From contig JBKQQG010000101.1 of NCBI GenBank assembly GCA_052144455.1, positions 14,717-78,716 of the forward strand: a DNA stretch of 64,000 nt, in the 5' to 3' direction. A program made the translations under genes and the position numbers. Below, in pieces: positions 8,526-62,065 of this stretch (positions are counted from its first letter, which is position 1; every line of letters starts with the position of its first letter). The stretch is from Bryobacteraceae bacterium (lineage in GTDB: Bacteria > Acidobacteriota > Terriglobia > Bryobacterales > Bryobacteraceae). Below the pieces are notes generated by a model that was not told the origin of the DNA, did no database searches, and saw nothing but the letters and a program-made list of their open reading frames with translations.

Positions 8526-8673
8526 GGAAACCCTCCTGTGGGAAGTCGAACGGACGGAACAACCAGGCAGGAATTAGTCGGAGCCAAACAACCCAGGCCG
8601 GGATGCGGCAGGCAGGCTCACCCTCATACCTCTACTCTAACGCTGTTTGTCCGGATTTCCAAGGGAAAACGGA

Positions 8674-8754
8674 AGGGCGACGGCCGGGCGGCGGCGGGCT
8701 GGTGTGCTGGCCTCGTGAGGGCGACGGCCGGGCGGCGGCGGGCTGCTATGCTGG
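8674..8754. repeat. Two-copy tandem direct repeat, period 44 bp (28-nt perfect core AGGGCGACGGCCGGGCGGCGGCGGGCTG at 8674..8701 and 8718..8745)
   Basis: Read directly. The flanking 9 nt (GTGTGCTGG vs CTATGCTGG) are also similar. The repeat lies just upstream of the YkgJ GTG start. Confidence 0.85.
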
Positions 8755-8758
8755 CAGG

Positions 8759-9166
8759 GTGAAGGAACTGCGCTTCACCTGCCTCCGCGGGTGCACCAAC
8801 TGTTGCCGGCAACGGGGCTTCGTCTACCTTGCCGAGGCGGACTTGCGGCGGGCGGCGGCGTTCCTGGGCCTGAGCCCGCGAGCCTTCGAGCGCGGCTATG
8901 TGTACCGGACGAAGCACCTGCTGCGGCTGCGCAAGCCCCGCGGAGCCCAGTGCCCGTTCCTTCGGGAAGACGGCTGCGGCATACATCCCGCCAAACCGGC
9001 GCAGTGCCGCATGTTTCCGTTGTGGCCGGAATTGCTGGAGGACCGCCGGGAGTGGCGGGAGGTGGCCGGATACTGTCCGGGCATCGGCCGCGGCCCCGGA
9101 GTCTCGGTTGAGCGGATTCTGCACGCCGCGCGAGAAATGCGGAAAAGCTACCCGAGCATGTACTGA
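8759..9166 (+). CDS. YkgJ family cysteine-cluster protein (UPF0153)
   Basis: CLRGCTNCC ... CPFL..DGCGIHPAKPAQCRMFP cysteine pattern. A GTG start was chosen at 8759. The upstream part of ORF 8603.. covers the repeat region and looks non-coding. Confidence 0.65.
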   Translation: MKELRFTCLRGCTNCCRQRGFVYLAEADLRRAAAFLGLSPRAFERGYVYRTKHLLRLRKPRGAQCPFLREDGCGIHPAKPAQCRMFPLWPELLEDRREWREVAGYCPGIGRGPGVSVERILHAAREMRKSYPSMY

Positions 9167-37150: not shown

Positions 37151-37180
37151 TTGACATCGGAGCTTCGAGTCCGCTACAGT
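37151..37180 (+). promoter_or_regulatory. Sigma70 promoter TTGACA-N18-TACAGT for the isc operon
   Basis: -35 at 37151..37156 and -10 at 37175..37180. The predicted TSS near 37187 favours the iscR start at 37206 over the ORF-track start at 37179. Confidence 0.5.
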
Positions 37181-37205
37181 GGATATGGGACTGGTTTGGT
37201 CCGAT

Positions 37206-37646
37206 ATGCTGAAGCTGACCAAAAAGGCCGACTACGGTCTCATCGCCTTGCGCCATCTGGCCATGGCCCGGCCCAGCCGCAGCGCCAGCGCCAAGGAGAT
37301 CGCCGACGCCTACGGCATCCCGCTTCCCCTGCTCGCCAAGGTTCTACAAACACTGGCCCGGGAGGGCCTGCTCACGGCCGTCCTGGGCACCAACGGCGGC
37401 TACAAACTGGCCCGCGATCCGGCCACCATCAGCGCTTTGGAGGTCATTCGTATCCTCGACGGGCCCATTATCCTCACCTCCTGTTTCACCCACGAAGGCT
37501 GTGGCCAATCCGGCAAATGCGGGGTGAAGGAACCGCTCCGCCGAATCCATGAGGGCATCCTCCGGCTGCTCGAGAGCATCACTATCTCAGCCATGAGCGA
37601 GGAGGCCCCCGAGACCCTCAAAATGTCCGTCCTGGAGAAGGTATGA
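37206..37646 (+). CDS. iscR: Rrf2-family transcriptional regulator IscR
   Basis: [19 protein letters not shown] and an Rrf2 wHTH. A Cys cluster ([14 protein letters not shown]) is consistent with a [2Fe-2S] ligand set. It is the first gene of the isc operon. Confidence 0.8.
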
Positions 37647-38857
37647 AGACGCCGATTTACATGGATTACCACGCCACCACCCCCGTCGACCCGCGGGTGC
37701 TCGACGCCATGCTGCCCTATTTCCAGGAGAAGTTCGGCAACGCCGCCAGCCGCAACCACTCCTTCGGCTGGGACGCCGAGCAGGCGGTGGAGAAGGGCCG
37801 CCGGCAGATCGCCGAGCTGATCGGAGCGACCCCCAAGGAAATTGTTTTCACTAGCGGGGCCACGGAGTCCAACAACCTGGCCATTAAGGGCGCGGCCGAG
37901 ATGTACGCCGAGCGCGGCAACCACATCATCACGGTGGCCACCGAGCACAAAGCCGTGCTCGATACCTGCAAGCGCCTGGCCAAGCACGGATTGGACGTCA
38001 CCTTTCTGCCCGTCCAGCGCGACGGACTGCTCGACCTCGACGCCCTGCGCGCCGCCATCACCGATCGGACCATCCTGATCAGCGTCATGCACGCCAACAA
38101 CGAAATCGGCGTGTTGCAGCCCGTGCGCGAGATCGGCCGGATCGCCCGGGAACGCGGCGTACTGTTCCACACCGATGCAACCCAATCGGTGGGCAAGGTC
38201 CCGGTCAGCGTCAACGACGACAACATCGACCTGCTGAGCCTGAGCGGACACAAGATCTACGGTCCCAAGGGCATCGGAGCCCTCTACGTCCGCCGCAAGA
38301 ACCCTCGCGTGCAGCTTACCGCGCAGATGGATGGCGGCGGTCACGAGCGCGGCATGCGTTCGGGCACGCTTAATGTTCCCGGCATCGTGGGCCTGGGCGA
38401 AGCCTGCGCCATCTGCCAACTGGAAATGGCCGGGGAATCCGCCCGCCTGGCCGGATTGCGCGACCGGCTCAAAGACCGCCTTTTCGCCGAGTTGGACGAA
38501 ATCTACGTCAACGGCAGTATGTCGAGCCGCCTGCCCAACAACCTCAACGTCAGTTTCGCCTACGTGGAAGGGGAATCCCTGCTCATGGGCATCCACGACG
38601 TGGCCGTCTCGAGTGGCTCGGCCTGCACTTCGGCCACGCTCGAACCCAGCTACGTCCTGCGCGCGCTAGGCGTCAGCGAGGATCTGGCCCACACCTCGAT
38701 CCGCTTCGGCCTGGGCCGCTTCAACACCCAGGAGGAAGTCGACTACGTCGCCGGGCGCGTCATCGAGGTGGTCGGGAAGCTGCGCGAGCTTTCACCGCTC
38801 TATGAGATGGCCAAAGAGGGCGTGGACCTCAAGCAGGTCCGCTGGAGCAAGGACTGA
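37643..38857 (+). CDS. iscS: Cysteine desulfurase IscS
   Basis: [31 protein letters not shown] (PLP Lys) and SSGSACTS (catalytic Cys loop). Confidence 0.9.
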
Positions 38858-38859
38858 TC

Positions 38860-39249
38860 ATGGCTTACTCGGAAAAAGTCCTGGACCATTACGCCAACCC
38901 GCGCAACGTCGGATCGCTGGACCGCAGCGACCCCCGAGTAGGCACCGGCATGGTGGGCGCGCCCGAGTGCGGCGATGTGATGAAGCTCCAGATCAAGGTC
39001 AACGAAGAGACTGGCGTGATTGAAGACGCCAAGTTCAAGACCTTCGGCTGCGGCAGCGCCATCGCCAGCTCCTCGCTAGCCACCGAGTGGGTGAAGGGCA
39101 AGACCATCGACCAGGCCCTCGAGATCCGCAATGTGGATATCGTCAACGAGCTGAGTCTGCCCCCGGTCAAGATCCACTGCTCGGTGCTGGCCGAAGACGC
39201 CATCAAGTCGGCAATCGAGGATTACAGGAAGAAGCAGAACCATGATTAA
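38860..39249 (+). CDS. iscU: Fe-S cluster assembly scaffold IscU
   Basis: YSEKVLDHYANPRNVG, GAPECGDVMKL, FKTFGCGSAIASSS and LPPVKIHCSVLAEDA. Confidence 0.95.
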   Translation: MAYSEKVLDHYANPRNVGSLDRSDPRVGTGMVGAPECGDVMKLQIKVNEETGVIEDAKFKTFGCGSAIASSSLATEWVKGKTIDQALEIRNVDIVNELSLPPVKIHCSVLAEDAIKSAIEDYRKKQNHD

Positions 39250-39565
39250 CGTGACACCCAAGGCCGTTCAGAAGATCAAGGACGCCTTCGCCAAGAACGG
39301 CGTCAGCGAGGGCGGACTCCGCCTGGGCGTCCAGGGTGGCGGCTGCTCCGGGCTTTCCTACCTGTTCCGCCTCGAGACCAGGCAGCGCGACAAGGACAAC
39401 GTCTACGAGTTCGACGGCGTCAAGGTATTCGTCGACCCCAAGAGCCTGCTGTACCTGGACGGCATGACGCTCGATTACCGGGAATCCCTGATCCACTCCG
39501 GCTTCGTCTTCGAGAATCCGAACGCGAAGAAGAGTTGCGGTTGCGGAACCTCGTTCACCGCCTGA
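39242..39565 (+). CDS. iscA: Fe-S cluster insertion protein (IscA/HesB family)
   Basis: [15 protein letters not shown] and the C-terminal CGCGTSF motif. Confidence 0.9.
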
Positions 39566-40092
39566 TGGACGCTCCCGACTACTTCCACTTTTTCGGCCTC
39601 GACCCCCGGCTCACCCTCGATCTGGCGGACCTGGAGACCAGGTTCTACCGCCTCAGCCGGAAACTGCATCCCGACCGTCACGCACAGGCCGCCCCGGCCG
39701 AGCGCGAACGCTCGCTCGAGGCTTCCGCGATCCTGAACGACGCCTACCGCACGCTGCGCGATCCGGTGGCCCGCGCCGAGTACCTGCTCAAGCGCCAGGG
39801 CTTCAAACCAACCAAGGAAGTGCCCGCGGAACTGCTCGACGAAGTCTTCGAGTTAAACTTGGCGCTGGAGGAGCTGCGCGCCGGCGACGCCTCGGTTCGC
39901 CCTCGTCTTCAGGCCGCGCGCGGCCGTTTCCGGGCTTTGCTCGCGGAGTCCGATGCCGCCCTCCAGCGCCTCTTCGCGGATTACGACCAGGCCCCCGGCC
40001 CCGCCACGCTGGGCCCTATCCGCGCCGCTCTCAATCGCCGCAAGTACATCTTCAACCTGGTCCAGCAGGTGGAAAGCGAATCGTCCTCCTGA
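39565..40092 (+). CDS. hscB: Fe-S protein assembly co-chaperone HscB
   Basis: J-domain ([33 protein letters not shown]). The ATG overlaps the iscA stop. Confidence 0.8.
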
Positions 40093-41942
40093 TGTCCTCT
40101 GTTTTCCAGATCGATTTCGGCGCCAGCCAGCCCGATCCGGTGGTCGGCATCGACCTCGGCACCACCAACAGCCTGGTCGCCTATATGGACCTCACCGGTC
40201 CCCAGGTCATTCCCGGCCAGGATGGCGATCACCTGGTACCCAGCGTCGTGCATGCCGGAGACGGCGCTCCGCTGGTGGGCAACGCTGCGCGGCAGATGCT
40301 CATCGACGACCCTCAGCGTACCGTCTACTCCGTCAAGCGCCTGATGGGACGCGGCCTCGCCGACGTCGAGAAGGAAGCCGGACTTTTTCCCTTCCGCTTC
40401 GCCGAGGGCAGCGAATCCGTCCTGCGGCTGCGCCTGGGCGACCGCACTTTCACCCCGCCCGAAATCTCCGCATTCATCCTGCAGCAGCTCAACCGCAACG
40501 CGGAAGCTTTCCTGGGCCGGGCGGTCACGCGCGCCGTGATAACCGTCCCCGCCTATTTCAACGACGCCCAACGGCAGGCCACCAAGGATGCCGGTCGCAT
40601 CGCCGGCCTGCACGTGCTGCGCCTGGTCAACGAGCCCACCGCCGCCTCTCTGGCCTACGGCCTCGACAAGCGACAGAACGGCATCGTGGCCGTCTACGAT
40701 CTGGGCGGCGGAACCTTCGACATCTCGATCCTCAAGATCCGCGACGGCATCTTCGAAGTGCTGGCCACCAACGGCGACACGCGCCTGGGCGGCGACGACA
40801 TCGACAACCATCTCTTGCGCATCGCCCTCGAGGATATCCACTCGGAATGGGGGCTGGATCTCGCGCACAACGGCAGCGCGGTGCAACTGCTGCGCCGCGC
40901 CGTCATCGAGGCCAAGGAACGGCTCTCCTTCGTCCCGCGCACCACCATCCAGCTCGATTACCAGGGCCGGAGTTACCGGCGCGAGCTCACGCGCGAACAG
41001 TTCGAGGCTCTGGTCCGCGGCATTGTGGACCGCACCCTGGGTCCCTGCCGCCATTGCCTCCAAGACGCCGGCGTGGCCGTCGAACAAATCGACGAAGTGG
41101 TGCTGGTGGGCGGCTCGACCCGCATTCCGCTGGTGCGCCAGGCCGTCGAGAACCTTTTCCGCGCCCGTCCGCACACCGAACTCAACCCGGAGGAAGTGGT
41201 CGCCCTCGGCGCGGCGGTACAGGCCGGCATCCTCACCGGCGACGTTCAGGACAAGCTGCTGCTCGACGTAACCCCGCTCTCCCTCGGCATCGAGACCATG
41301 GGCGGCATCGCCTCCAAGATCATTCATCGCAACTCGACCATTCCGGCGAGCTCGACCGAGGTCTTCACCACCGCCGTGGACGGCCAGCGCAACGTCCTCA
41401 TCCACGTCGTCCAGGGCGAGCGCGAATTAGTGAAGGACTGCCGCAGCCTGGCGCGCTTCGACCTCCAGGGCATCGATCCGCTACCCGCCGGCGCCCCCCG
41501 CATTGAGGTCCGATTCCTGATTGACGCGAACGGCATCCTCAGCGTCACCGCCCGCGACCAGCGCACCGGAAAGGAGCACTCCGTCGAGGTCAAGCCTTCC
41601 TACGGCCTCACCGACGACCAGGTCGAGGCCATGATCCGCGACTCGATCGAGCGCGCCGAGGAGGATTTCGGCGAGCGGCAGGTACGCGAGGCCCGCCTGG
41701 AGGCCGACACCATCCTGGCCGCCGTCGAGAAGGCCCGCGCCGGCGGCGCCTGGCTCGAGATGACCCAGCAGGAGACCGCTGCCATCGAGCAGGCCCTCAA
41801 CGAACTGCTGACGGTCTATCACTCGACGGACCACGCTCTCATCCGCGCTCACATCGAGAAGCTCAACCAGGCCACGCTCCACCTGGCCGAGATCATGATG
41901 AACACCGCCGTCCGCGACGCGCTCAAGGGGACCAGGATCTGA
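40092..41942 (+). CDS. hscA: Fe-S protein assembly chaperone HscA (Hsp70 family)
   Basis: [44 protein letters not shown] and [11 protein letters not shown]. It lies in the isc operon context. Confidence 0.9.
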
Positions 41943-48982: not shown

Positions 48983-49114
48983 CTGCCTGAATCGATGCAT
49001 TCGCGCCGGTTGCCGTCAGCCCGGTTTGCCGCATCTCCTGGGGCGGTAGCGCAATTTCACCCAGTTGCACTCGGATATTACCAGCTAAGCCGTTTGTTAT
49101 TAACAGATTGAGTT

Positions 49115-49130
49115 TGGCAACCCGTATGCA
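49115..49130 (+). promoter_or_regulatory. Candidate sigma54 (-24/-12) promoter TGGCAACCCGTATGCA upstream of the hydrogenase operon
   Basis: GG and GC are at the canonical spacing (TGGCA-N8-TGCA). It lies in the lowest-GC stretch of a 319-bp intergenic region, about 80 nt upstream of the first hydrogenase gene. Confidence 0.4.
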
Positions 49131-49211
49131 CCCGAATACTCCGGAACCAAGTTAGCTGAAGGTGTGCCAAACCCCCCTTTCCGCGCCGCCTGGCTCCAGA
49201 GATAACTAGCG

Positions 49212-50351
49212 ATGGACACAACGCTGCCTCCCGTCGGCTCCCAGTCCGTGATTGATTTCGCGGCCCTGTCCGCCCTGATCTCCGCGCTCCGGCGGCGGGA
49301 CTACCAAGTGATTGGCCCCACCGTGCGCGACGGAGCGATTACCTGCGATGTGATCGAGAAGGCCGGGGACCTCCCGGCCGGCTGGGGCGATGAGCAGGAG
49401 TCCGGCCACTATCGCCTGAAGAAGCGCGAGGACTCCGCCGTGTTTGGCTACACCGTGGGGCCGCAGGGCTGGAAACGCTACCTGCACCCGCCCGAGCTGC
49501 CCATTTTCGAGGGGCGCCGCGACGGGGAGGCGTTCACCATCCTGCGCAATGCGCCCCGCCCTCCGCAGTACGCCTTCCTCGGGGTGCGCGCCTGCGAGCT
49601 GGCGGCCATTGGCATCCAGGATCGCGTCCTGCTCGGCGACCGTTACCGCGACCCCGCCTACCACGCCCGCCGCGAGGGCGCCTTCATCGTGGCCGTGAAC
49701 TGCACCCAGGCGGGGGGAACCTGTTTCTGCGCCTCCATGCGCACCGGCCCGCGCGTTCAGGCCGGCTTCGACCTGGCTCTCACCGAGATGCTCGGCCCCG
49801 AAGGGCAAAGCTTCGTGGTCGAGGTGGGCACCAAGCTGGGTGCGGCGGTTCTGGGGGAAGTCGAGCGCCGCAAAGCCCGGAAGGAGGAGTTGAAGGCCGC
49901 CCAGTCGGCCGTCGAGAGCGCCGCCTCCCAGATGGGCCGGTCGCTCGATACCGAGGGCGTCCGCGACCTGCTCTTCGACAATTTCGACCACCCCCGCTGG
50001 GACAAAGTGGCCGCCCGCTGCCTGAGCTGCGCCAATTGCACCCTGGTCTGCCCCACCTGCTTCTGCACCACCATCGAGGATATTACCGACATCACCGGCG
50101 ACCACGCCGAGCGCGAACGCAAGTGGGATTCCTGCTTCACCGACGGTTTCTCGTATATCCACGGCGGCAGCGTCCGGCTTTCCGTGAAGTCGCGCTACCG
50201 CCAGTGGCTCACTCACAAGTTCGCCGCCTGGGTCGATCAATTCGGAACCTCCGGCTGCGTAGGCTGCGGGCGCTGCATCGCCTGGTGCCCGGCCAGAATC
50301 GACGTCACCGAGGAAATCAAGGCCATTCGGGGAGCGCCCAGCCCCGCATAG
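49212..50351 (+). CDS. [NiFe]-hydrogenase group 3b-type beta subunit (AsrA-like 4Fe-4S protein)
   Basis: RACELAAI, VNCTQAGGTCFCASM, CLSCANCTLVCPTCFC and CVGCGRCIAWCP cluster motifs, as in AsrA/HydB. It is the first gene of the operon. Confidence 0.75.
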   Translation: MDTTLPPVGSQSVIDFAALSALISALRRRDYQVIGPTVRDGAITCDVIEKAGDLPAGWGDEQESGHYRLKKREDSAVFGYTVGPQGWKRYLHPPELPIFEGRRDGEAFTILRNAPRPPQYAFLGVRACELAAIGIQDRVLLGDRYRDPAYHARREGAFIVAVNCTQAGGTCFCASMRTGPRVQAGFDLALTEMLGPEGQSFVVEVGTKLGAAVLGEVERRKARKEELKAAQSAVESAASQMGRSLDTEGVRDLLFDNFDHPRWDKVAARCLSCANCTLVCPTCFCTTIEDITDITGDHAERERKWDSCFTDGFSYIHGGSVRLSVKSRYRQWLTHKFAAWVDQFGTSGCVGCGRCIAWCPARIDVTEEIKAIRGAPSPA

Positions 50352-50371
50352 CCGGCAAGGAGAACCACCCC

Positions 50372-50848
50372 ATGGAAACCAAAACGCTGATCGACATTCT
50401 TCGGGACCATCCGTTCATGGAGGGTCTGAAGCCGAACCACATCCAGAAACTGGCCGAGGTGGCCCTGGAGGTGCAGATATCGCGCGACCAGGTCGTCTTC
50501 CGGGAAGGAGACGAGAGCAGCCTGTTCTATCTCCTGGTCTCCGGCAAGGTGGCGCTGGAAGTCTCCGCTCCCGGCCGGATCGTCCGCATACAGACCCTGG
50601 GCGAGGGCGACGAGATGGGCTGGTCCTCGCTGCTGGGCCAGGGCGGTAAGACTTTCCAGGCGCGCGCGCTCGAGCCGGTCCGCGCCATCGCCTTCGACGG
50701 CCCACGCCTGCGCCAGGTCTGGGAGCAGGACCCCGCCTTCGGCTATCAATTCCTGATGCGCATTCTCAAGGTGGTCGCGCAACGCCTGCAAGCCACGCGC
50801 CTGCAACTGATCGACCTGTACGCGCCACGGGGGGTCAAACTCGTATGA
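50372..50848 (+). CDS. Stand-alone cyclic-nucleotide-binding (CNB/CAP effector) domain protein, no output domain
   Basis: SD AAGGAGA lies upstream. F..L....I..LA.......I.RDQVVFREGDESSLFYLLVSGKVALEV.....R.V.IQTLGEGDEMGWSSL is the CNB beta-roll pattern. 158 aa with no HTH. Confidence 0.75.
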   Translation: METKTLIDILRDHPFMEGLKPNHIQKLAEVALEVQISRDQVVFREGDESSLFYLLVSGKVALEVSAPGRIVRIQTLGEGDEMGWSSLLGQGGKTFQARALEPVRAIAFDGPRLRQVWEQDPAFGYQFLMRILKVVAQRLQATRLQLIDLYAPRGVKLV

Positions 50849-51699
50849 GTGTGGTTGCCGCCGTCGCCGCTCCCGCGCTGCCGCCCAATCTGGTTCCCAT
50901 GCGCGTCTCCAGCCTCGTCAAGGAGACGCACGACACCTTCACCCTGACTCTCGAATCCCCGCCCGACGAGGGCCTCGGCCGCTTCTCTCCCGGCCAATTC
51001 ACCATGCTGTACGTGTTTGGAGTCGGAGAGCTGCCTATTTCCATCTCCGGCGATCCCGACGAGAGCAGCCGCCTGGTTTACACCGTGCGCTCGGTCGGCA
51101 AGGCCACCAACGCGCTGGTGAACTGCCAGCCCGGCCAGTGGGTGGGAGTGCGCGGCCCTTTCGGCACCTCCTGGCCGCTCGAGCAGGCCCGCGGCAACGA
51201 TGTGTTGATCGTCGCCGGCGGCATCGGCCTGGCGCCGCTGCGCCCCGCCATCCATCACATGCTGCGCCATCGCGACGATTACGTCCGCCTGATGCTCCTC
51301 TACGGCGCCCGCAGTCCCAAGGATTTGCTCTATCGCAAGCAGCTCAACGAGTGGGGCCGCTTGCCCGATACCCAGGTCCTGTCCACGGTCGACTATGGCG
51401 GGGTGAACTGGCGTGGATATGTAGGCGTCGTCACCACGCTGTTCCGCTACGTCCGTCTGCACCCCGGCCGGACCACCGCCATGATCTGCGGACCCGAGAT
51501 CATGATGCGCTACGTCATCCGGGAACTGGAGAAGCGCGGCCTGCCCGAGTCCGACATCTACCTCTCCATGGAACGCAACATGAAATGCGCGGTGGGCTTT
51601 TGCGGCCACTGCCAGCTCGGCCCCTATTTCGTTTGCAAGGACGGCCCCATCTTCCCCTACACCCAGATGCGGCCCTGGCTGGAGAAGCATGAGCTCTGA
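50845..51699 (+). CDS. Hydrogenase gamma subunit (AsrB-like FAD/NAD(P)-binding oxidoreductase with a C-terminal 2Fe-2S site)
   Basis: FNR-like fold (PGQFTMLYVFGVGELPISISG; VLIVAGGIGLAPLRP; MICGPEIMM) and C-terminal CAVGFCGHCQLG. The ATG overlaps the upstream stop. Confidence 0.8.
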   Translation: MSVVAAVAAPALPPNLVPMRVSSLVKETHDTFTLTLESPPDEGLGRFSPGQFTMLYVFGVGELPISISGDPDESSRLVYTVRSVGKATNALVNCQPGQWVGVRGPFGTSWPLEQARGNDVLIVAGGIGLAPLRPAIHHMLRHRDDYVRLMLLYGARSPKDLLYRKQLNEWGRLPDTQVLSTVDYGGVNWRGYVGVVTTLFRYVRLHPGRTTAMICGPEIMMRYVIRELEKRGLPESDIYLSMERNMKCAVGFCGHCQLGPYFVCKDGPIFPYTQMRPWLEKHEL

Positions 51700-52477
51700 C
51701 AAGAAAACCAAACCCCGGGTGGCCGTGTTCAAGTTCGCATCCTGCGACGGCTGCCAGTTGAGCCTGTTGGATGCCGAGGACGAACTGCTCGCAGTCGCCG
51801 GAGCCATTGAGATCGCCTTCTTTCCGGAGGCTTCCCGGACCATGCTCAAGGGCCCCTACGACATCGGGCTGGTGGAAGGCTCCATCACCACGCACCACGA
51901 TGCCGAGCGCATCCAGCAGGTCCGCCGCCAGTGTACGGTGCTGGTGACCATTGGCGCATGCGCCACCGCCGGCGGCGTCCAGGCGCTCCGCAATTGGGCC
52001 GACAGCCAGGAGTACGTCCGCACCGTCTATTCCCAGCCCGATTTTATCCAGACCCTCAAGATGTCCACCCCCATTGCGGAACATGTGCCGGTGGATTTCG
52101 AGCTGCGCGGCTGCCCCATCAACAAAAAGCACCTCATCGAGCTGATCGCGGCCATGCTCATTGGCCGCAAGCCCAACATCCCCACTCACAGCCTGTGCAT
52201 GAAGTGCAAGCGCAGCGGCAACGTCTGCATCGCCATCGCCCGCGGCGTCCCCTGCCTGGGTCCGGTGACCCAGAGCGGCTGCGGCGCCCTCTGTCCGCGC
52301 TTCGGACGCGGCTGTTATGGTTGTTATGGCCCCATGGAGAGCGCCAATACCGCCGCCATGACCACGCAGTTGCGCCTGCTGGGGCAAAGCGACGAGGAAA
52401 TCGCCCGCGCCTTCCGCAGTTTCAACGCCTGGAGCTGGCAATTCCGCCAGGCCAGCGAGGAGGCCGAACGAGCCTGA
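51689..52477 (+). CDS. [NiFe]-hydrogenase small (delta) subunit, group 3 type
   Basis: KFASCDGCQLSLLD, GACATAGGV, GCPI and a C-terminal Cys-rich cluster region (CMKCKRSGNVCIA...CLGPVTQSGCGALCP..GRGCYGCYGP). Confidence 0.85.
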   Translation: MSSDKKTKPRVAVFKFASCDGCQLSLLDAEDELLAVAGAIEIAFFPEASRTMLKGPYDIGLVEGSITTHHDAERIQQVRRQCTVLVTIGACATAGGVQALRNWADSQEYVRTVYSQPDFIQTLKMSTPIAEHVPVDFELRGCPINKKHLIELIAAMLIGRKPNIPTHSLCMKCKRSGNVCIAIARGVPCLGPVTQSGCGALCPRFGRGCYGCYGPMESANTAAMTTQLRLLGQSDEEIARAFRSFNAWSWQFRQASEEAERA

Positions 52478-52959
52478 TGGCGCCGCTGCTCATCATCGGC
52501 TGCGGCAATCCGCTGCGCGGCGACGACGCCGTTGCCTGGCGCGCCGCGGAGCGCCTGGCCGAGTCCCTGTGCGATACCGGCGCCCTGGTTCGCATCGGTC
52601 ATCAACTGACCCCCGAATTGGCCGAGGCTATTAGTCAGGCCCGGCAGGTGATCTTTCTCGACGCGGATTGCGGCCGCCGTCCGGGGGAAGTCGCCTTGCG
52701 CGCCCTCGAGCCCGCCAGTTCCCTCGCCGAGCTGTTCACCCATCAATTGACCCCGGAGCGCCTGCTGGCCCTGGCCAAGCGCCTGTACGGCAGGTGCCCC
52801 GAAGCGGTTCTGATCTCGGTAGGGGCCGGCTCGTTCGAGTTCGGCGCGGCGCTCTCGCCGCAGGTGGAAGCGGCCCTGCCCGCGCTTTTGGAGAAGATTT
52901 ATACGGAAGGAACCTGCAATGAAAAAACTGAAGAATGCCGGCGGAGATTCCGCCCATGA
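52477..52959 (+). CDS. Hydrogenase maturation endopeptidase, copy 1
   Basis: [18 protein letters not shown]...HQLTPE...VIFLDAD matches the HyaD/HoxW/HycI protease pattern. The ATG overlaps the small-subunit stop. Confidence 0.75.
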
Positions 52960-55672
52960 CATCTTGAAGCCCAGAAAACACCCGCTGGACATTTTCTTCG
53001 AGCCGGAGTCGGTAGCCCTGATCGGCGCCACCGAAAACCCGGGCAGCGTCGGGCGCACCGTGCTGTGGAATCTGATCAGTACGCCGTTCGGCGGAACCGT
53101 GTACCCGGTGAACCCCAAGCGCCCCAGCGTCCTGGGCATCCGCGCCTACCCCAGCATCGCCGCGGTCCCCGAGAAGGTCGACCTGGCGGTGGTCGTCACC
53201 CCGGCCAAAACCATTCCGGGCATTATCCGCGAGTGCGTGGACGCCGGCGTGGGCGCGGCCGTCGTCATTTCGGCCGGCTTCAAGGAGACCGGCCCCGAGG
53301 GCCTGCGTTACGAGCAGGATTTGGTCGCCGAAGCCAGGCGCGGCAACATGCGCATCATCGGCCCGAACTGCCTGGGCGTCATGAGCCCCCGCACCGGACT
53401 CAACGCCACCTTCGCCCGTGGCATGGCGCTGCCCGGCAACGTCGGATTCATCAGCCAGAGCGGCGCACTGTGCACCGCCATTTTGGACTGGAGCTTGCGG
53501 GAGCAGGTCGGCTTCAGCTCGTTCCTCTCCATCGGCGCCATGTCGGACGTGGGCTGGGGCGACCTCATCGACTACCTGGGCAACGACCCCCACACGCGCA
53601 GCATCCTGCTCTACATGGAGACCATCGGCGACGCCCGCGCGTTCCTCTCCGCGGCCCGCGAAGTGGCGCTCTCCAAACCCATTCTGGTCATCAAGCCCGG
53701 CCGCAGCGAAGCTGCCGCCAAGGCCGCCGCCTCTCACACCGGCTCCCTCACCGGCAGCGACGAGGTGCTGGATGCCGCCTTCCGTCGCAGCGGCGTGCTG
53801 CGAGTGAACAACATCTCCGAGCTGTTCTACCTGGCCGAAGTGCTGGCCAAGCAGCCCCGCCCGTCCGGCCCGCGTCTGTCCATCGTGGCCAACGCCGGCG
53901 GCCCGGCCGTCCTCGCTACCGACGCTCTGGTCATGAGCGGCTGCGAGGTCCCCGAACTCTCCAAGGAAACCTTCGACGCGCTCAATGCGTTCCTGCCCGC
54001 CGCGTGGAGCCGCAACAACCCCATCGATATCCTCGGCGACGCCGGCCCCGACCGCTACGCCAAGGCGCTCGAGATCGCCGCCAAGGACCCCAACGCCGAC
54101 GGCCTGCTGGTCATCCTGACTCCACAGGCCATGACCGATCCCACCAAGACCGCCGAGCAACTCCGGCCCTACGCCCAAATCGAGGGCAAGCCGGTGCTCG
54201 CCAGTTGGATGGGCGGCGCCGAGGTCGCCGCCGGCGAGGAGGTCCTGAACCGCGCGGGAATTCCGACCTTCCCCTATCCCGACACAGCCTCCCGCATCTT
54301 CAACTACATGTGGCGCTTCAGCGACAACCTGCGTGGCCTCTACGAGACTCCCATGGCCGCCGCCACCGAGGAAGCCGAAGCCGATCGCGCCCGCGCCGAC
54401 GCCATCATCCAGACCGCGCGCCATGCCGGCCGCACCATCCTCACCGAGTTCGAGTCCAAGCAACTCCTGGCCACCTACGGCATTCCCATCGTCGAGACCC
54501 GCATTGCAACCAGCGAGGACGATGCCGTAAAGAGCGCCGCCGAGATCGGCTATCCCATCGTCCTGAAGCTGTACTCCGAGACCATCACCCACAAGACCGA
54601 CGTGGGCGGCGTGCAGCTCAACCTGCGCGACGAAGCCGCCGTCCGCGCGGCCTACAAAGCCATCCAGGCCTCGGTCGCCGCCAAGGTCGGCAGCCAGCAT
54701 TTCCAGGGCGTCACCGTGCAGCCCATGATCAAGCTGTTCGGCTACGAACTCATCATTGGCTCCAGCATCGACCCGCAGTTCGGCCCCGTGCTGCTGTTCG
54801 GCATGGGCGGCCAGCTCGTCGAAGTCTTCAAGGACCGCGCCCTGGCCTTGCCCCCGCTCAACTCCACCCTGGCCCGCAGCATGATGCAGGCCACCAAAAT
54901 CTACACCGCGCTCAAGGGCGTTCGCGGCCGCAAGTCCATCGACCTGGCCGAGCTCGATCAATTGCTGGTGCGCTTCAGCCAGCTCGTGGTCGAGCAGCCG
55001 TGGATCAAGGAGATCGACATCAACCCGCTGCTTGCTTCCCCAGAGCGCCTGATCGCCCTGGATGCCCGCGTGGTGGTGCATGGCCTGGACGTTCCCCAGG
55101 AGAAATTGCCGCGCCTGGCCATCCGTCCCTACCCCACCCGCTACGTGGCCCCTTGGACCGCCAAGGACGGCACCGACGTCCTGATCCGTCCCATTCGTCC
55201 CGAGGACGAGCCGCAGCTAGTCAAGTTCCATGAGACGCTCTCCGAGCGCTCCGTTTACCAGCGCTACCTGCACCTGATGAAGCTCAGCCAGCGCGTGACC
55301 CACGAGCGCCTGACCCGCATCTGCTTCATCGATTACGATCGCGAGATGGCGCTGGTCGCCGAGCACAAGGACCCCGCCAGCGGCGAGAGCCGGGTGATCG
55401 CCGTCGCCCGTCTCAAGAAGGCCCACGGCATTGACGAGGCCGAGTTCGCCATAATCGTTACCGACGATTACCAGGGCCGCGGCTTGGGCTCCGAGCTGTT
55501 GCGGCGTTTGCTGGCGTTGGCCAAGGATGAGAAGGTGGGGCGCATCGTCGGGGACGTACTGCCCGATAACCTGGCGATGCAGCACGTTTGCGAGAAGGCG
55601 GGTTTCCAATTGAGGCGCTCGATCGACGACCCGGTGGTCAAGGTCGAGCTGGACCTGGCAGTTTTGGTGTAA
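52919..55672 (+). CDS. Fused ADP-forming acetyl-CoA synthetase (alpha+beta) / GNAT acetyltransferase (Pat-like), 917 aa
   Basis: CoA-binding ([15 protein letters not shown]), ligase-CoA domain with [12 protein letters not shown]-grasp (E.ESK.LL..YGIP...., [17 protein letters not shown]) and a C-terminal GNAT ([18 protein letters not shown]). Confidence 0.85.
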
Positions 55673-55749
55673 TCCGGCGGTCCGTGGCTCGCCTGCCTCC
55701 TTTTACGGTCTGCGAGCCGCGGGCTTCCCAGTTTCGGGAGGTTTGACCG

Positions 55750-57048
<1,299 letters not shown>

Positions 57049-57063
57049 CCCCCGGCCATTCCC

Positions 57064-57510
57064 GTGCCCTGCCTGATCGTCGCCTGCGGCAACGCGGACC
57101 GGGGCGACGACGCCGCCGGCCCGCTGGTCGCCGATCATCTGCGCGCCCTGGGAATCCCGGTCGAAAAGCGCACCGGCGAGGGCCTGGACCTTCTGGAATC
57201 CTGGAGCGGCGCCGAACGCGTCATAATAGTAGATGCAGTCGTTACAGGGGCTCCGGCGGGGACCATTTCCGTCTGGGACGCGCATCGCGCTCCGGTCGCC
57301 CGCGACCTTTTCCGCGCCTCCACGCACGCCTTCGGAGTGGCCGAAGCCGTGGATCTCGGGCGCGCGCTCGACCGGCTCCCCAAGTCGCTTACGATCTACG
57401 GAATCGAGGCCGCCCAGTTCGAGCATGGTTCGCCGCCCTCGCCGCCGGTTCTCGCCGCTGTTGAAAAACTCGCCTCTCGAATTGCGAAGTCGCTGAAACT
57501 GGAAACATGA
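57064..57510 (+). CDS. Hydrogenase maturation endopeptidase, copy 2
   Basis: LIVACGNADRGDDAAGPLVA....VIIVDAV....G........H.FG pattern. The start is GTG and the gene directly follows the large subunit. Confidence 0.75.
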   Translation: MPCLIVACGNADRGDDAAGPLVADHLRALGIPVEKRTGEGLDLLESWSGAERVIIVDAVVTGAPAGTISVWDAHRAPVARDLFRASTHAFGVAEAVDLGRALDRLPKSLTIYGIEAAQFEHGSPPSPPVLAAVEKLASRIAKSLKLET

Positions 57511-59675
57511 TGGTCGCGGCAACTAGCCTCGAACGCCTCCGCGTCGCCCTCTACGGCGCCGTGCAAGGCGTCGGCTTCCGCCCTTTCGTTTACCGCCTCG
57601 CCACTGAAATGGGATTGCCGGGCAGCGTGCTCAACTCCAGCGCCGGTCTGGTCGTCGAAGTCGAAGGCAGTCGCCCGGATCTCGACGCCTTCCTGGTTCG
57701 CCTCGAACGCGAGAAGCCCGCCGCCGCCCTGGTTCTAGCCCGCGAGACCAGCCTGCTCGCTCCCGCCGGCTATACCCGCTTCGAAATCCTGGAAAGCGAC
57801 CAGGCCGCCGAGAAGACCACCAGCATCCTGCCCGACCTAGCCACCTGTCCACAGTGCCTGGCCGAGTTGTTCGACCCCGCCAATCGCCGCTTCCGCTATC
57901 CGTTCACCAACTGCACCCAGTGCGGCCCGCGCTACTCGATTGTTCTCGATATCCCCTATGACCGCCCGCGCACCACCATGCGCGGCTTCGAGCTGTGCCC
58001 CGATTGTGCTCGCGAGTATGCCGATCCTGCCGATCGCCGCTTCCACGCGCAGCCCAACGCCTGTCCGCGCTGTGGCCCCAAGCTGTCGATGGACCTCGGC
58101 GAAGTGGCCCAGGCCCTGCGCGCGGGCCGCATCGTCGCCCTGAAAGGAATCGGCGGCTTTCAGTTGCTGGTCGATGCCGCCAACCAGGACGCCGTCGCTC
58201 GTCTGCGCCGCCTCAAGCATCGCGAAGAGAAGCCCTTCGCGCTGATGATGCCCAGCCTCGAAATGGTGCGCGACTATTGCCGCGTTTCCCCCGACGAAGC
58301 GGCCGTGTTGCAGTCGCCGGCCGCTCCGGTGGTGCTGCTCGCTCCGCTCGCCAATCCGCGCCTGGCCCCCAATGTCGCGCACAATTCGCCCTGGCTCGGG
58401 GTGATGCTCCCCTACTCGCCTCTTCACCATCTTCTGATGCGCGAGTTCCCGTCCCCGATGGTCGCCACCAGCGGCAACCTCAGCGACGAGCCGATCGCCA
58501 TCGACAACGACGAAGCGCTCCAGCGCCTCTCCGGCATCGCCGACCTCTTCCTGCTGCACGACCGCCCCATCGCGCGCCCCTGCGACGATTCCGTGGTGCG
58601 CGTCGCGCGCGGCCGCGAGAGCGTCCTGCGCCGGGCACGCGGCTATGCGCCTCTGCCCGTCCGCGCGGCGCGCGAATTGCCTCCCGTGCTGGCCGTCGGC
58701 GCGCATCTCAAGAACGCCGTCGCCATCGCCGTCGGCCGCCAGGTCTTCTTGAGCCAGCATGTGGGCGACCTCGACACCTTGGAATCGCGCGCCGCCTTCG
58801 AGAGAGCGATTGCCGACCTCTGCCGCCTGTACCGTTTCCAGCCCGAAATGGTGGCCTGCGACCTGCACCCCGACTACGCCTCCACCCGCTGGGCGCTCGC
58901 CTCCGGACTGCCGCTCGTCAAGGTGCAGCACCACCACGCCCACGTCGCCGCCTGCGCCGCCGAAAACGATGTCGCCCCTCCCTATCTCGGCGTGGCCTGG
59001 GATGGCACGGGCTACGGACTCGACGGCGCCATCTGGGGCGGGGAGTTTTTCTACGTCGAGGGCGGGCGCTTCGAGCGCATCGCGCATCTGCGCCCCTTCC
59101 GCCTGCCCGGTGGAGAGGCCGCCATTCGCGAAGGCTGGCGCGCGGCATCGAGTCTGCTCTTCGAAACCGCGGGTCCCGGCGCCATCCCCGATCCCCGCAT
59201 CCGCCGCATGTTGGAGCGCGGCCTCAATGCGCCGCCGACCACCAGCGTCGGCCGCCTCTTCGACGCCGTTTCCTCCATCGCCGGCATCGCCCAACAGAGC
59301 CGCTTCGAAGGGCAAGCCGCCATGCTGCTCGAGCGCTCCATCGACGGCCTGGATACCGCCGATTGCTATCCGCTGCCGGATGGCGATTGGGCGCCGCTCA
59401 TCGCCGCCCTGCGCGGAGACGTCAAGACCGGTATCCCCCGCAGCGTCGTCGCCGCCCGTTTCCACAACGCGCTCGCGCACTGGATTCTGGCCGTGGCCCA
59501 GCGCTCCGGCCTGCGTCAAATCGTCCTCAGCGGCGGCGTATTTCAGAACAGCTATTTGGTGGAGCGCGCCGCGGCGTTGCTCGAACAGCGCGGCTGCCGC
59601 GCCTACACGCATCAGCGCGTCCCACCCAACGACGGCGGTATCGCCCTCGGTCAAGCCGTGCTGGCAGGAGGTTAA
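57507..59675 (+). CDS. hypF: Carbamoyltransferase HypF
   Basis: Acylphosphatase-like VQGVGFRPFVYRLA, two Zn-finger pairs (CPQC...CTQCGPRYS; CPDC...CPRCGP), a YrdC-like domain (KGIGGFQLL, KHREEKPFALM) and a Kae1-like C-terminus. Confidence 0.9.
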   Translation: MMVAATSLERLRVALYGAVQGVGFRPFVYRLATEMGLPGSVLNSSAGLVVEVEGSRPDLDAFLVRLEREKPAAALVLARETSLLAPAGYTRFEILESDQAAEKTTSILPDLATCPQCLAELFDPANRRFRYPFTNCTQCGPRYSIVLDIPYDRPRTTMRGFELCPDCAREYADPADRRFHAQPNACPRCGPKLSMDLGEVAQALRAGRIVALKGIGGFQLLVDAANQDAVARLRRLKHREEKPFALMMPSLEMVRDYCRVSPDEAAVLQSPAAPVVLLAPLANPRLAPNVAHNSPWLGVMLPYSPLHHLLMREFPSPMVATSGNLSDEPIAIDNDEALQRLSGIADLFLLHDRPIARPCDDSVVRVARGRESVLRRARGYAPLPVRAARELPPVLAVGAHLKNAVAIAVGRQVFLSQHVGDLDTLESRAAFERAIADLCRLYRFQPEMVACDLHPDYASTRWALASGLPLVKVQHHHAHVAACAAENDVAPPYLGVAWDGTGYGLDGAIWGGEFFYVEGGRFERIAHLRPFRLPGGEAAIREGWRAASSLLFETAGPGAIPDPRIRRMLERGLNAPPTTSVGRLFDAVSSIAGIAQQSRFEGQAAMLLERSIDGLDTADCYPLPDGDWAPLIAALRGDVKTGIPRSVVAARFHNALAHWILAVAQRSGLRQIVLSGGVFQNSYLVERAAALLEQRGCRAYTHQRVPPNDGGIALGQAVLAGG

Positions 59676-59677
59676 CC

Positions 59678-59935
59678 ATGTGTCTGGCCGTACCCGGTAA
59701 AATCGTCGACATCCTCGCGGACCCCGACCCCGCCCTGCGCCGCGCCAGCGTCGACTTCGGCGGCGTCCGCAAAGAGGTCTCGCTGGCCTTCACGCCCGAG
59801 GCCGTCATCGGCGACTACGTCCTGGTCCACGTCGGCTTCGCCCTCAACGTGGTCGACCCTGCCGAAGCTCAGAAGATCCTCGAGTACCTCAAGCAGATGG
59901 ACGATCTCGCCGAACTCCAGGAGGGCCCCGCGTGA
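59678..59935 (+). CDS. hypC: Hydrogenase assembly chaperone HypC
   Basis: [11 protein letters not shown]-terminus (essential Cys2). 85 aa. Confidence 0.9.
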
Positions 59936-61032
59936 AGTTCCTCGACGAGTACCGCGAAGGCGCTCCTGTCGCCCTGCTCGCGCGCGAGATCCGGCGCATC
60001 ATCCACCATCCCTGGACCATCATGGAGATCTGTGGCGGCCAGACCCACACTATTCTCAAGAGCGGCCTCGAGGATCTGCTGCCGCCCCAGGTCACCCTGG
60101 TTCACGGCCCCGGCTGCCCGGTTTGCGTGACCCCCATCGAGCTGATCGACAAAGCGGTCGAGATCGCCGCGCGTCCCGAAGCCATCCTGTGCTCCTTTGG
60201 CGATATGTTGCGCGTCCCCGGTTCCACGCGCAGCCTGCTGGACTCGAAGGCCGCCGGCGGCGACGTCCGCATCGTCTATTCGCCGCTGGACGCCCTGAAG
60301 GTCGCGCGCGCGAATCCCCAGCGCCAGGTGGTGTTCTTCGCCGTGGGCTTCGAGACCACCGCGCCCGCCAACGCCATGTCCGTCTGGCAGGCCGCCCAGC
60401 AGGGGCTTGAGAATTTCTCGCTGCTGGTGGCGCACGTGCTCGTCCCGCCCGCCATCGAGGCCATTCTAAGCGCCCCCCACTGCCGCGTCCAGGCCTTTCT
60501 CGCGCCCGGCCATGTCTGTACGGTCATGGGCTATCACGAGTACGAACCCCTGGCCCAGCGCTACCACGTGCCCATCGTCGTCACCGGTTTCGAGCCGCTG
60601 GATCTGCTGGAGGGTATCCGCCTGGCGGTCGCGCAATTGGAAGACGGCCGCGCCGTGGTCGAGAACCAGTACAGCCGTGCCGTCACCCGCGCCGGCAACC
60701 AGCCCGCCCAGCAGCGCGTCGCCGAGATCTTCGAAGTCGCCAACCGCCAGTGGCGCGGCATCGGCGAGATTCCATTGAGCGGCCTGCGCCTGCGCGAGCC
60801 CTATCGCCGCTTCGACGCCGAAGAGCGCTTCGGATTGCGCGCCGCCGGCGCACGCGAGTCCGCCGATTGCATCAGCGGCCTGGTTCTGCAAGGTCTCAAG
60901 AAGCCCGTCGAGTGCCCGGCCTTCGGCGTCCAATGCACGCCCGAGCGGCCCCTGGGCGCCCCTATGGTCTCCTCCGAGGGCGCCTGCGCCGCCTACTACC
61001 ACTTTGGGAGACGCCCACATGCTGGAGCTTAA
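59932..61032 (+). CDS. hypD: Hydrogenase formation protein HypD
   Basis: [36 protein letters not shown] and PGHV motifs. Confidence 0.9.
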
Positions 61033-62065
61033 TTTCACCTGCCCGGTCCCCCTCCCCGCCGGCGACCGCATTCTGCTGGCCCATGGCGGTGGCGGCACGC
61101 TCATGAATCAGTTAATCGAGCGCGTCTTCCTCCCCGCCTTCTCGAATCCCGCGCTCGAAGCCCGCCACGACGGCGCGATTCTGAACGTCGGAGGCGCGCG
61201 CCTGGCCTTCACCACCGATTCCTATGTCGTGCAGCCGCTCGTTTTCCCCGGCGGCAATATCGGCGACCTGGCCGTCAACGGCACGGTCAACGACCTAGCC
61301 ATGTGCGGAGCCCGTCCGCTCTATCTCAGCACCGGCTTCATTCTCGAGGAAGGGCTGCCCATCGAAACCCTGCGCCTGGTCGTCGAATCCATGCGCTTGG
61401 CGACCGCGAGCGCCGGAGTCTCGCTGGTCACCGGCGACACCAAGGTTGTCGACAAAGGCAAGGCCGACGGCATCTTCATCAACACCGCCGGCATCGGCGT
61501 GCTCGATCATGCGCTCGCTATAGGACCGCAGTCGGTTTGCCCCGGCGACGCCGTGATCGTCAGCGGCGACCTCGGCGCGCACGGCATCGCCATCCTCTCC
61601 GTGCGCGAAGGCCTCGAATTCGACGCCCCCATCGTGAGCGACACCGCTCCGCTCTGGGCGCCGGTCGAAGCGCTGCTCGCCGCAGGCCTCGAGATCCACT
61701 GCCTGCGCGATCTCACGCGCGGCGGCCTGGCTTCCACGCTCAATGAAATCGCCACCGCACGCGGTGTTGGCATTCGCATTCGGGAGGCCAGCCTCCCGGT
61801 CGAGGAAGTAGTGCGCGGAGCCTGCGAGATCCTGGGCCTCGACCCGCTCTACGTCGCCAACGAAGGCCGATTCGCTATCTTCCTCCCCGCCGCCCAGGCC
61901 GCCCAAGCCCTCGGAATCCTCTCCGCCTTCCCGGTCTGCAGCCGCGCCGCCCTGGCCGGCGAAGTCTCCGCCGCCGACCCCGGCCTCGTCGTCCTCGCCA
62001 GCCGAATCGGAGGCAACCGCGTCGTGGACATGCTGAGCGGAGAGCAACTGCCCAGGATTTGCTGA
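61019..62065 (+). CDS. hypE: Hydrogenase expression/formation protein HypE
   Basis: AIR-synthase-like fold ([20 protein letters not shown]) and C-terminal ...LPRIC (the carbamoylated/cyanated Cys). Confidence 0.9.

Follow-up and report, generated by a model that had tools for sequence, protein, structure and literature searches.

A HoxW-type protease gene and an acyl-CoA synthetase/acetyltransferase gene inserted in the group 3b [NiFe]-hydrogenase operon of a Bryobacteraceae bacterium

The DNA considered here is a stretch of 64,000 nucleotides (hereafter the window) from contig JBKQQG010000101.1 of a Bryobacteraceae bacterium (Acidobacteriota), and its subject is one chromosomal operon that encodes a predicted cytosolic, NAD(P)-linked group 3b [NiFe]-hydrogenase of beta, gamma, small and large subunits. 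Between the genes for the small and large subunits lie two others, one for a maturation protease (endopeptidase 1) and one for a 917-aa protein that joins an ADP-forming acyl-CoA synthetase to a C-terminal GNAT acetyltransferase domain (ACS/GNAT). This pair is the sole true insertion in the operon; its most likely origin is a group 3d hox operon once nested there, of which it would be the remnant. The ACS/GNAT protein is probably bifunctional, forming ATP from acetyl-CoA and acetylating proteins. Taken whole, the explanation that we favour, a 3b operon with a nested-hox remnant and a bifunctional ACS/GNAT protein made together with the hydrogenase, is on balance probable, with ample room for doubt. 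It is built by comparison, from gene content, conservation, constraint, the distribution of insertion states, the catalytic residues and a promoter-like element. An ACS/GNAT gene within a 3b operon is an unusual, clade-wide conserved feature for which we found no prior description, and a literature search returned nothing relevant on ACS/GNAT genes in hydrogenase operons or on hoxW with an acetyltransferase.

Orthologues of the ACS/GNAT protein were gathered by scanning metagenomes with the 917-aa protein, and their neighbourhoods were compared within 6 kb. Endopeptidase 1 and ACS/GNAT separate the small from the large subunit gene in one Bryobacterales clade only, and the closest public relatives of the locus are Bryobacteraceae and Bryobacterales metagenome-assembled genomes (MAGs); an exact-match look-up of the large subunit protein found no record. 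What lies between the two subunit genes varies among the loci compared (numbered with the prefix L). A complete example (L088 363-8494) holds hoxE, hoxF, hoxU, hoxY, hoxH, endopeptidase 1 and ACS/GNAT there, one hydrogenase operon being nested in another with the full 3d hoxEFUYH and protease inside 3b. In L089, on a 1.15-Mb Bryobacteraceae contig, the insertion consists of hoxE, endopeptidase 1 and ACS/GNAT; hoxH, endopeptidase 1 and ACS/GNAT are visible in two contig-truncated loci (L087, L095 3-3529), which belong to the same state as L088; the window shares endopeptidase 1 and ACS/GNAT with L084, L001/L005, L098 and L165; and ACS/GNAT stands alone in L004, L085, L086, L090-L093 and L137. 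Every insertion variant keeps the ACS/GNAT gene, under selection as strong as that on the structural genes (ratio of nonsynonymous to synonymous substitution, dN/dS, of 0.09-0.19 against four relatives, the same range as for the structural genes).

In a neighbour-joining tree endopeptidase 1 clusters with the protease encoded after HoxH in the separate 3d operon of L045, as well as with protease-like genes that precede ACS/GNAT elsewhere, and lies apart from the 3b large-subunit proteases; endopeptidase 2, whose gene comes after that for the large subunit in almost every related locus, belongs to a clade of its own. It is this HoxW-type grouping, taken with the hox genes of relatives at the same spot, that leads us to read the insertion as a hox remnant. 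The locus is thus like group 3d hoxEFUYH/hoxW operons in the affinity of its protease and in the complete hoxEFUYH that close relatives hold at the same place, and unlike them in keeping the protease only: the window has no hox structural gene, and a scan for a second large subunit found no HoxH substrate there. A reading made from the sequence alone (hereafter the sequence-only reading) had described a two-gene interruption of the operon, which proves real and conserved for ACS/GNAT and part of the normal layout for the other gene, discussed below; it had overlooked both the HoxW-type nature of endopeptidase 1 and the nested hox operon from which the insertion appears to derive.

On the simplest reading, the hyhS and hyhL genes of an ancestor enclosed a whole group 3d module (hoxEFUYH-hoxW-ACS/GNAT), which would later have been trimmed lineage by lineage, the hox structural genes and often the protease being lost and ACS/GNAT always retained. 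The four insertion states are interleaved in the tree of ACS/GNAT proteins, which points to repeated losses of hox and protease genes; the trees are neighbour-joining trees without support values, and for that reason the direction of events, the polarity of hox loss, is one that we infer. Such a rearrangement is plausible because other Acidobacteriota often carry 3b and 3d operons in tandem (L002, L045), a hoxEFUYH operon following the 3b operon within 0.5-3 kb (L002/L003 14608-21305; L045 11775-17130). In L002 a pyruvate:ferredoxin oxidoreductase gene directly follows the hox operon. Endopeptidase 1 is dispensable in several lineages, and its dN/dS of 0.26-0.34, close to the 0.22-0.40 of endopeptidase 2 (window versus relatives), rules it out as a decaying pseudogene. 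We found no published account of a hox module nested within a 3b operon; the nested operon is a clear case of operon remodelling and would explain an otherwise puzzling second protease.

Among orthologues of at least 73% identity to the ACS/GNAT protein, 16 of 17 are embedded in a 3b operon, the remaining one having a protease gene upstream and hypC/hypD downstream; none of the 63 orthologues of at most 70% identity has 3b genes within 6 kb. Linkage to hydrogenase or hyp genes takes at least five architectures. The order large subunit-ACS/GNAT-protease-hypFCDE occurs at the same chromosomal site, after lptD, the RDD protein gene and pgi (L008, L164); ACS/GNAT-hypFCDE lies beside another hydrogenase cluster with kinases (L166); in L026 the gene stands 3.5 kb downstream of a 3b operon; a GNAT-less 719-aa ADP-forming synthetase with the loop SHTGALAGS comes right after a deltaproteobacterial 3b operon (L081 3653-5812); and a cyanobacterium-like contig of 37% G+C has the order hoxH-adhE-DUF29-HoxW-like protease-ACS/GNAT (65% identity; L132 1-8745). 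Outside hydrogenase loci the orthologues share no operon partner, the largest neighbour cluster being a HoxW-like protease found in 8 loci.

Some of these loci carry further detail. In L166 (1-16373) the ACS/GNAT gene (73% identity) heads hypFCDE and is divergent from gamma-like, small and large subunit genes; the divergent cluster, whose large gene is called in two pieces, includes histidine kinases, response regulators and a HoxW-type protease, and a sigma-54 activator gene lies 3 kb downstream. The adhE of L132 encodes a bifunctional aldehyde/alcohol dehydrogenase, pentapeptide and DUF29 genes accompany it, and the related L133 carries a CYP38-like gene; the gene set of L132 has the look of a fermentation cluster from an organism resembling a cyanobacterium. 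A pyruvate:ferredoxin oxidoreductase gene between hoxH and the protease of L132, as beside hoxH in L002, was considered and rejected, the genes there being adhE and DUF29. A protease-like gene also precedes ACS/GNAT in L133, L138/L146 and L143, with no hydrogenase gene near. In L001/L005 (7158-9910), from a 5.4-Mb Bryobacterales MAG, the gene call divides ACS/GNAT into two genes of 603 and 314 aa, with tblastn frame changes near 8640-8830, the split being either a long-read assembly error or a pseudogene.

By its Pfam domains the ACS/GNAT protein is an ADP-forming acyl-CoA synthetase of domain order 1-2-5-4-3 with a C-terminal GNAT domain. It aligns at full length (residues 23-914, 7.7e-158) with E. 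coli PatZ (PDB 9it0) and over 681 residues (1.8e-145, 489 bits) with the 4-hydroxybutyrate-CoA ligase Nmar_0206 (8wzu), and its GNAT domain matches mycobacterial Pat (4ava, 1e-11; NF058543, 3.7e-21). The four-domain architecture of CoA-binding, ligase-CoA, ATP-grasp and GNAT domains is that of S. enterica Pat and E. coli PatZ, whose genes, unlike the one described here, lie outside hydrogenase operons. PatZ lacks the swinging-loop histidine through a 4-residue deletion (NTTAG versus SHTGSLTG), whereas the window protein keeps H273 (SHTGSLTGS) and H558 (ITHKTDVGG), which align with the catalytic H256 and H535 that carry the phosphoryl group in Nmar_0206 (PMC11494057). With the ADP-forming synthetases Nmar_0206, Nmar_1309, PH0766 (2csu) and Ca. 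Korarchaeum ACD1 (4xyl) it shares the fused 1-2-5-4-3 order, the SHTGSL(T/A)GS swinging loop and a second histidine in the ATP-grasp lid, and it differs from them in having a GNAT domain. In that domain E842, QGRGLG 852-857 and K893 match E809, the P-loop and K860 of PatZ, and the counterpart of PatZ R754 is kept too.

Reviews hold that the synthetase-like domain of type I and II GNATs is inactive, its catalytic histidine missing (PMC8556138), and in all characterised members this domain is an allosteric acetyl-CoA sensor (PMC8556138; PatZ structure paper). The absent histidine from which a dead synthetase domain is recognised is present in the window protein, as H273 and H558, and of 87 close orthologues 85 retain the motif of the swinging loop. 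A wide search covered 1.84 billion cluster representatives, and 84 of its best 150 matches (P0361-P0510) were ACS/GNAT fusions; an alignment of these 84 diverse proteins shows His at position 273 in 60 of them and both histidines in 50. Fusions that retain the histidine thus make up a large class, and the textbook view of an inactive sensor, which comes from enterobacterial Pat, may on the same counts fail for much of the family. We found no paper on histidine-retaining ADP-forming synthetase/GNAT fusions. The fermentative idea put forward in the sequence-only reading, that acetyl-CoA is turned into acetate and ATP, is strengthened by the retention of the two histidines that are catalytic in ADP-forming ligases.

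The hydrogenase itself is assigned to group 3b from similarity and subunit make-up. The large subunit carries the nickel motifs RICGIC (residues 61-66) and DPCISCATH (residues 412-420), with CxxC at residues 63/66 and 414/417, then His420 and a 12-residue C-terminal tail for proteolytic maturation. Its top PDB matches are the sulfhydrogenase alpha subunits of T. kodakarensis and P. furiosus (5yxy, 9nez; 1e-69), compared with 1e-45 for Mvh (3c), 3e-36 for Frh (3a) and 1e-35 for the NAD-reducing enzyme (3d), so the group 3b assignment made earlier holds. Shy/Hyd models are the best NCBIfam match for each of the beta, gamma, small and large subunits, and all four genes of the 3b heterotetramer are present (AsrA-like beta, AsrB-like gamma, small and large). 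This four-subunit make-up is shared with P. furiosus sulfhydrogenases I and II (HydBGDA, ShyBCDA), the T. kodakarensis cytosolic hydrogenase and M. smegmatis Hyh, as is a C-terminal extension of the large subunit that a dedicated protease cleaves. Unlike those systems, the bacterial operons of this clade add a gene between beta and gamma for a cyclic nucleotide-binding (CNB) domain protein, and the window locus differs further by the HoxW-type protease and ACS/GNAT genes, which part the small from the large subunit gene, and by having hypFCDE within the same operon.

Group 3b enzymes are among the most widespread hydrogenases of soil bacteria and are thought to aid the survival of aerobes under hypoxia through fermentative H2 release. 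Bacterial members have been tied to fermentative H2 evolution under hypoxia (literature on mycobacterial Hyh). In the explanation favoured here, the operon, which would also supply a CRP-like sensor-domain protein, endopeptidase 2 for maturation of the cognate large subunit and HypFCDE, would be induced, as mycobacterial Hyh is, when oxygen is short or redox limitation sets in, and the hydrogenase would re-oxidise NAD(P)H with release as H2. The synthetase half would convert acetyl-CoA, ADP and Pi to acetate, ATP and CoA via phospho-His558 and phospho-His273, and the GNAT half, at high acetyl-CoA levels, would acetylate some target protein on a lysine. If Pat is a guide, that target could be the AMP-forming acetyl-CoA synthetase (Acs), in which case a futile acetate cycle would be blocked; neither an Acs nor a sirtuin gene is present in the window.

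The CNB gene had been taken, like ACS/GNAT, for an interruption of the operon. One genome per species was scanned with a large-subunit alignment, which gave 80 loci of 60-90% identity from many phyla, and gene content was determined by tblastn with the twelve window proteins. Of the 73 loci with both a beta and a gamma gene, which come from more than a dozen phyla, 71 have a CNB gene between the two, and the beta-CNB-gamma order is found in Acidobacteriota, Ignavibacteriota, Bacteroidota, Chloroflexota, Planctomycetota, Zixibacteria, Binatia, Nitrospinota and others. Beta-CNB-gamma-small-large-protease is the usual bacterial 3b layout, and CNB is its standard fifth gene. A CNB gene between two diaphorase genes has already been mentioned for Frankia synton-4 (Francci3_4499) and Rhodococcus equi 103S (WP_013415449.1) (PMC11879354, PMC13332983). 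These counts and that prior mention refute the interruption as far as CNB is concerned; the comparison of synteny leaves the CNB order common and already mentioned, and the position of ACS/GNAT unusual and clade-confined. The window locus is like the Frankia and R. equi 3b clusters in having a small CNB gene between diaphorase genes and differs from them in possessing an ACS/GNAT gene, a second protease and hyp genes, none of which they have.

All 120 CNB homologues among the matches listed are of about 158 aa with PF00027 only. The CNB protein ends after the C-helix and is without a C-terminal helix-turn-helix DNA-binding domain, in agreement with an AF2 model (pLDDT 83) in which a CRP-type beta-roll is joined by a C-helix of 30 residues and no DNA-binding domain is seen; the best PDB structures found with Foldseek are M. 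tuberculosis CRP and C. glutamicum GlxR (TM 0.72). Its dN/dS is 0.11-0.23. In a hand alignment to E. coli CRP the Glu of the phosphate-binding cassette is kept, and the canonical Arg-Ser/Thr is replaced by Lys-Thr in the Bryobacterales clade and aligns to Trp-His, with Arg just before, in most CNB relatives. Two subtypes can be told apart (window; L004-L083), a widespread one with GWSWLxPPYRWHFDARA and a conserved DGKCL and a Bryobacterales one with GWSSLL....K.FQARA, which has one residue fewer after PGR; it is in the cassette loop that AlphaFold is least confident. The Bryobacterales subtype (GWSSLL...K.FQARA) is thus distinct from the Frankia and R. equi type (GWSWLxPPYRWHFDARA). Kept in nearly all bacterial 3b operons, the CNB protein is a companion of the diaphorase module that is still uncharacterised and merits direct experiment.

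The operon is probably driven by a sigma-54-type promoter. The -24/-12 element TGGCAACCCGTATGCA ahead of the beta gene, with GG at -24 and GC at -12 properly spaced, is the only TGGCA-N7-TGCA match on either strand of the window, and the element recurs ahead of beta in 11 related loci of the Bryobacterales type, compared with at most one of about 68 other 3b loci. Further upstream, AATTTCACCCAG (consensus AT[TA]TCACCCA) forms a block that is conserved in the upstream-region alignment of Bryobacterales-type loci only and is a candidate activator-binding site; the promoter-like element and this block suggest sigma-54 control by an activator encoded outside the window. The spacer between ACS/GNAT and the large subunit gene is predicted to fold into two stable hairpins (minimum free energy, MFE, -40.3 kcal/mol; z -3.4; 0 of 200 shuffles as stable), the second of which pairs with the GGGAGG ribosome-binding site of the large subunit gene. 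Its sequence is conserved in the closest relative only, and other relatives carry different GC-rich palindromes there; the hairpins may be an element of processing, stability or translation control.

Of the alternatives to the bifunctional enzyme, the one that we take most seriously, while judging it unlikely, is that the 917-aa protein is an ordinary type I lysine acetyltransferase like Pat and PatZ, in which the synthetase part senses acetyl-CoA and makes no ATP, and which regulates the hydrogenase, Hyp or other redox proteins, or Acs. Its full-length similarity to PatZ, the conserved catalytic Glu, P-loop and Lys of its GNAT domain and the sensor role of the synthetase-like domain in characterised type I/II GNATs all agree with such a protein. 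The inactivating loss of histidine is nevertheless not seen, in the window protein or, to judge by the loop, in nearly all close orthologues; the synthetase part matches an active ligase about as well as it does PatZ; and a synthetase with no GNAT domain at all occupies a similar place after the deltaproteobacterial 3b operon of L081. A functional link may also be wanting altogether, ACS/GNAT and endopeptidase 1 being passengers of the hox-nesting rearrangement that persist through dependence on the operon promoter. The varied insertion states do mark a rearrangement-prone region, distant orthologues have unrelated neighbours and most 3b operons work without an ACS/GNAT gene, but the retention of ACS/GNAT in every derived architecture, against the loss of five hox genes and often of the protease, its constraint at the level of the structural genes, and its linkage, in at least five arrangements and three phylum-level backgrounds, to hydrogenase or hyp genes make this quite improbable.

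The sequence-only reading had further compared the CNB and GNAT proteins with a mycobacterial Pat divided between two genes, which would control the hydrogenase by cyclic-nucleotide-dependent acetylation. Both domain types do occur within one operon, the GNAT domain is like that of mycobacterial Pat, and the CNB model is like cAMP-bound M. tuberculosis CRP. However, CNB and ACS/GNAT are no co-occurring pair, because about 70 3b loci have a CNB gene and no ACS/GNAT gene; it is to the diaphorase genes, not to ACS/GNAT, that the CNB gene is coupled; and the cassette, with Lys-Thr here and Trp-His after Arg in most relatives, is atypical just where the model is least confident. We rejected a split Pat on co-occurrence across 3b loci and give it hardly any credence.

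Several observations weigh against the explanation that we favour. Orthologues of at most 70% identity have heterogeneous, non-hydrogenase neighbours, and because of these contexts the ACS/GNAT protein is not intrinsically a hydrogenase partner; an ACS/GNAT-like gene occurs in just 5 of the 80 related 3b loci of reference genomes, in differing positions. Given neighbour-joining trees without support values, secondary insertion of hox genes in place of their loss still stands as a formal alternative. Since purifying selection on endopeptidase 1 persists, the protease may serve a Hox enzyme encoded elsewhere and be more than a relic. The direction of the ligase reaction and the target of the GNAT domain are guesses. 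Within the window no acetyl-CoA-producing enzyme (such as pyruvate:ferredoxin oxidoreductase or pyruvate formate-lyase) is encoded, and a motif scan of the same 64 kb for GAFTGA found no sigma-54 enhancer-binding protein.

The features of the locus are collected in Table 1. Open reading frames, Pfam and NCBIfam confirm the twelve + strand genes between 49212 and 62065 and the domains that had been read from the sequence, with one corrected coordinate, the hypC start, which is ATG 59678 rather than 59672. The tight coupling of the genes is likewise real, with overlaps of 1-41 nt, gaps of 2-20 nt and a lone exception of 77 nt: beta and CNB are 20 nt apart, CNB/gamma overlap by 4 nt, gamma/small by 11 and small/endopeptidase 1 by 1; endopeptidase 1 and ACS/GNAT overlap by 41 nt, and gaps of 77 and 15 nt follow before the large subunit and endopeptidase 2 genes; endopeptidase 2/hypF overlap by 4 nt, hypF and hypC are 2 nt apart, and hypC/hypD and hypD/hypE overlap by 4 and 14-29 nt. 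Scans for intrinsic terminators and sigma-70 promoters found no + strand terminator-like or sigma-70-like site inside the operon, a result consistent with one transcript, of which it is no proof. As had been noted for the locus, hypA and hypB are absent, and a motif scan found no HypA, no HypB/UreG signature and no second [NiFe] large subunit anywhere in the window.

Table 1. Predicted features of the hydrogenase locus, in window coordinates
Feature	Position	Strand	Basis or remark
Upstream motif AATTTCACCCAG, candidate activator-binding site	49053..49064	+	Consensus AT[TA]TCACCCA; ~50 nt upstream of -24 element
Sigma-54-type -24/-12 element TGGCAACCCGTATGCA	49115..49130	+	82 nt upstream of beta ATG
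hyhB-like beta subunit (AsrA/ShyB-like, 4Fe-4S dicluster)	49212..50351	+	PF17179 (Fer4_22) 7.7e-33; top NCBIfam ShyB/HydB
Stand-alone CNB (CRP/FNR-type sensor) domain protein, 158 aa	50372..50848	+	PF00027 only, 3.8e-14
hyhG-like gamma subunit (AsrB-like FAD/NAD(P)-binding, [2Fe-2S], DHODB Fe-S)	50845..51699	+	PF00175, PF10418, PF00970; PRK08345 2.6e-59
hyhS small (delta) subunit	51689..52477	+	PF01058 (Oxidored_q6); ShyD/HydD top matches
Endopeptidase 1, HoxW-type maturation protease	52477..52959	+	TIGR00072, 94 bits
ACS/GNAT fusion, 917 aa	52919..55672	+	Pfam CoA_binding, Succ_CoA_lig, Ligase_CoA_2, ATP-grasp_5, GNAT
Structured intergenic RNA, ACS/GNAT–large subunit spacer	55678..55749	+	Predicted fold, MFE -40.3 kcal/mol
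hyhL large (alpha) subunit, group 3b	55750..57048	+	PDB 5yxy, 9nez 1e-69; ShyA/HydA top NCBIfam
Endopeptidase 2, cognate 3b maturation protease	57064..57510	+	TIGR00072, 101 bits
hypF	57507..59675	+	Acylphosphatase, zf-HYPF, Sua5, HypF_C domains
hypC	59678..59935	+	PF01455 4e-26; start = ATG 59678
hypD	59932..61032	+	PF01924 7.9e-152
hypE	TTG 61004 or ATG 61019 to 62065	+	AIRS, AIRS_C domains

The window has a G+C content of 65%, and the neighbours of the operon are chromosomal housekeeping genes: an isc Fe-S biogenesis operon, rplT, lptD, an RDD protein gene and pgi upstream, and clpS and a metallo-beta-lactamase-fold gene downstream on the opposite strand. The isc-type operon (37179-41942), 7 kb upstream of the Fe-S-rich hydrogenase operon, encodes Rrf2/IscR, IscS, IscU, two small open reading frames (39242-39565 and another), a DnaJ-domain HscB-like protein and HscA.

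Of the two genes first singled out in this operon, the CNB gene has turned out to be ordinary and already present in the literature, and ACS/GNAT has gained an evolutionary explanation and a sharpened functional hypothesis. An acetyl-CoA-converting or acetylating enzyme within the 3b operon of an abundant clade of peat and soil Acidobacteria points to a testable coupling of substrate-level ATP formation, or of acetyl-CoA sensing, with H2 evolution. We put forward, as a tentative proposal whose odds of holding in full are low, that the histidine-keeping ACS/GNAT fusions, which are the majority of the diverse relatives sampled and include the window protein, are true bifunctional enzymes that make ATP from acetyl-CoA and also acetylate, switching off the AMP-forming acetyl-CoA synthetase or another target, and that in Bryobacterales such an enzyme has been hard-wired into an H2-evolving operon. 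If this is true, the general claim of a dead synthetase domain in type I GNATs would be overturned, and nominally aerobic soil Acidobacteria would gain a compact hypoxia module yielding acetate, ATP and H2.

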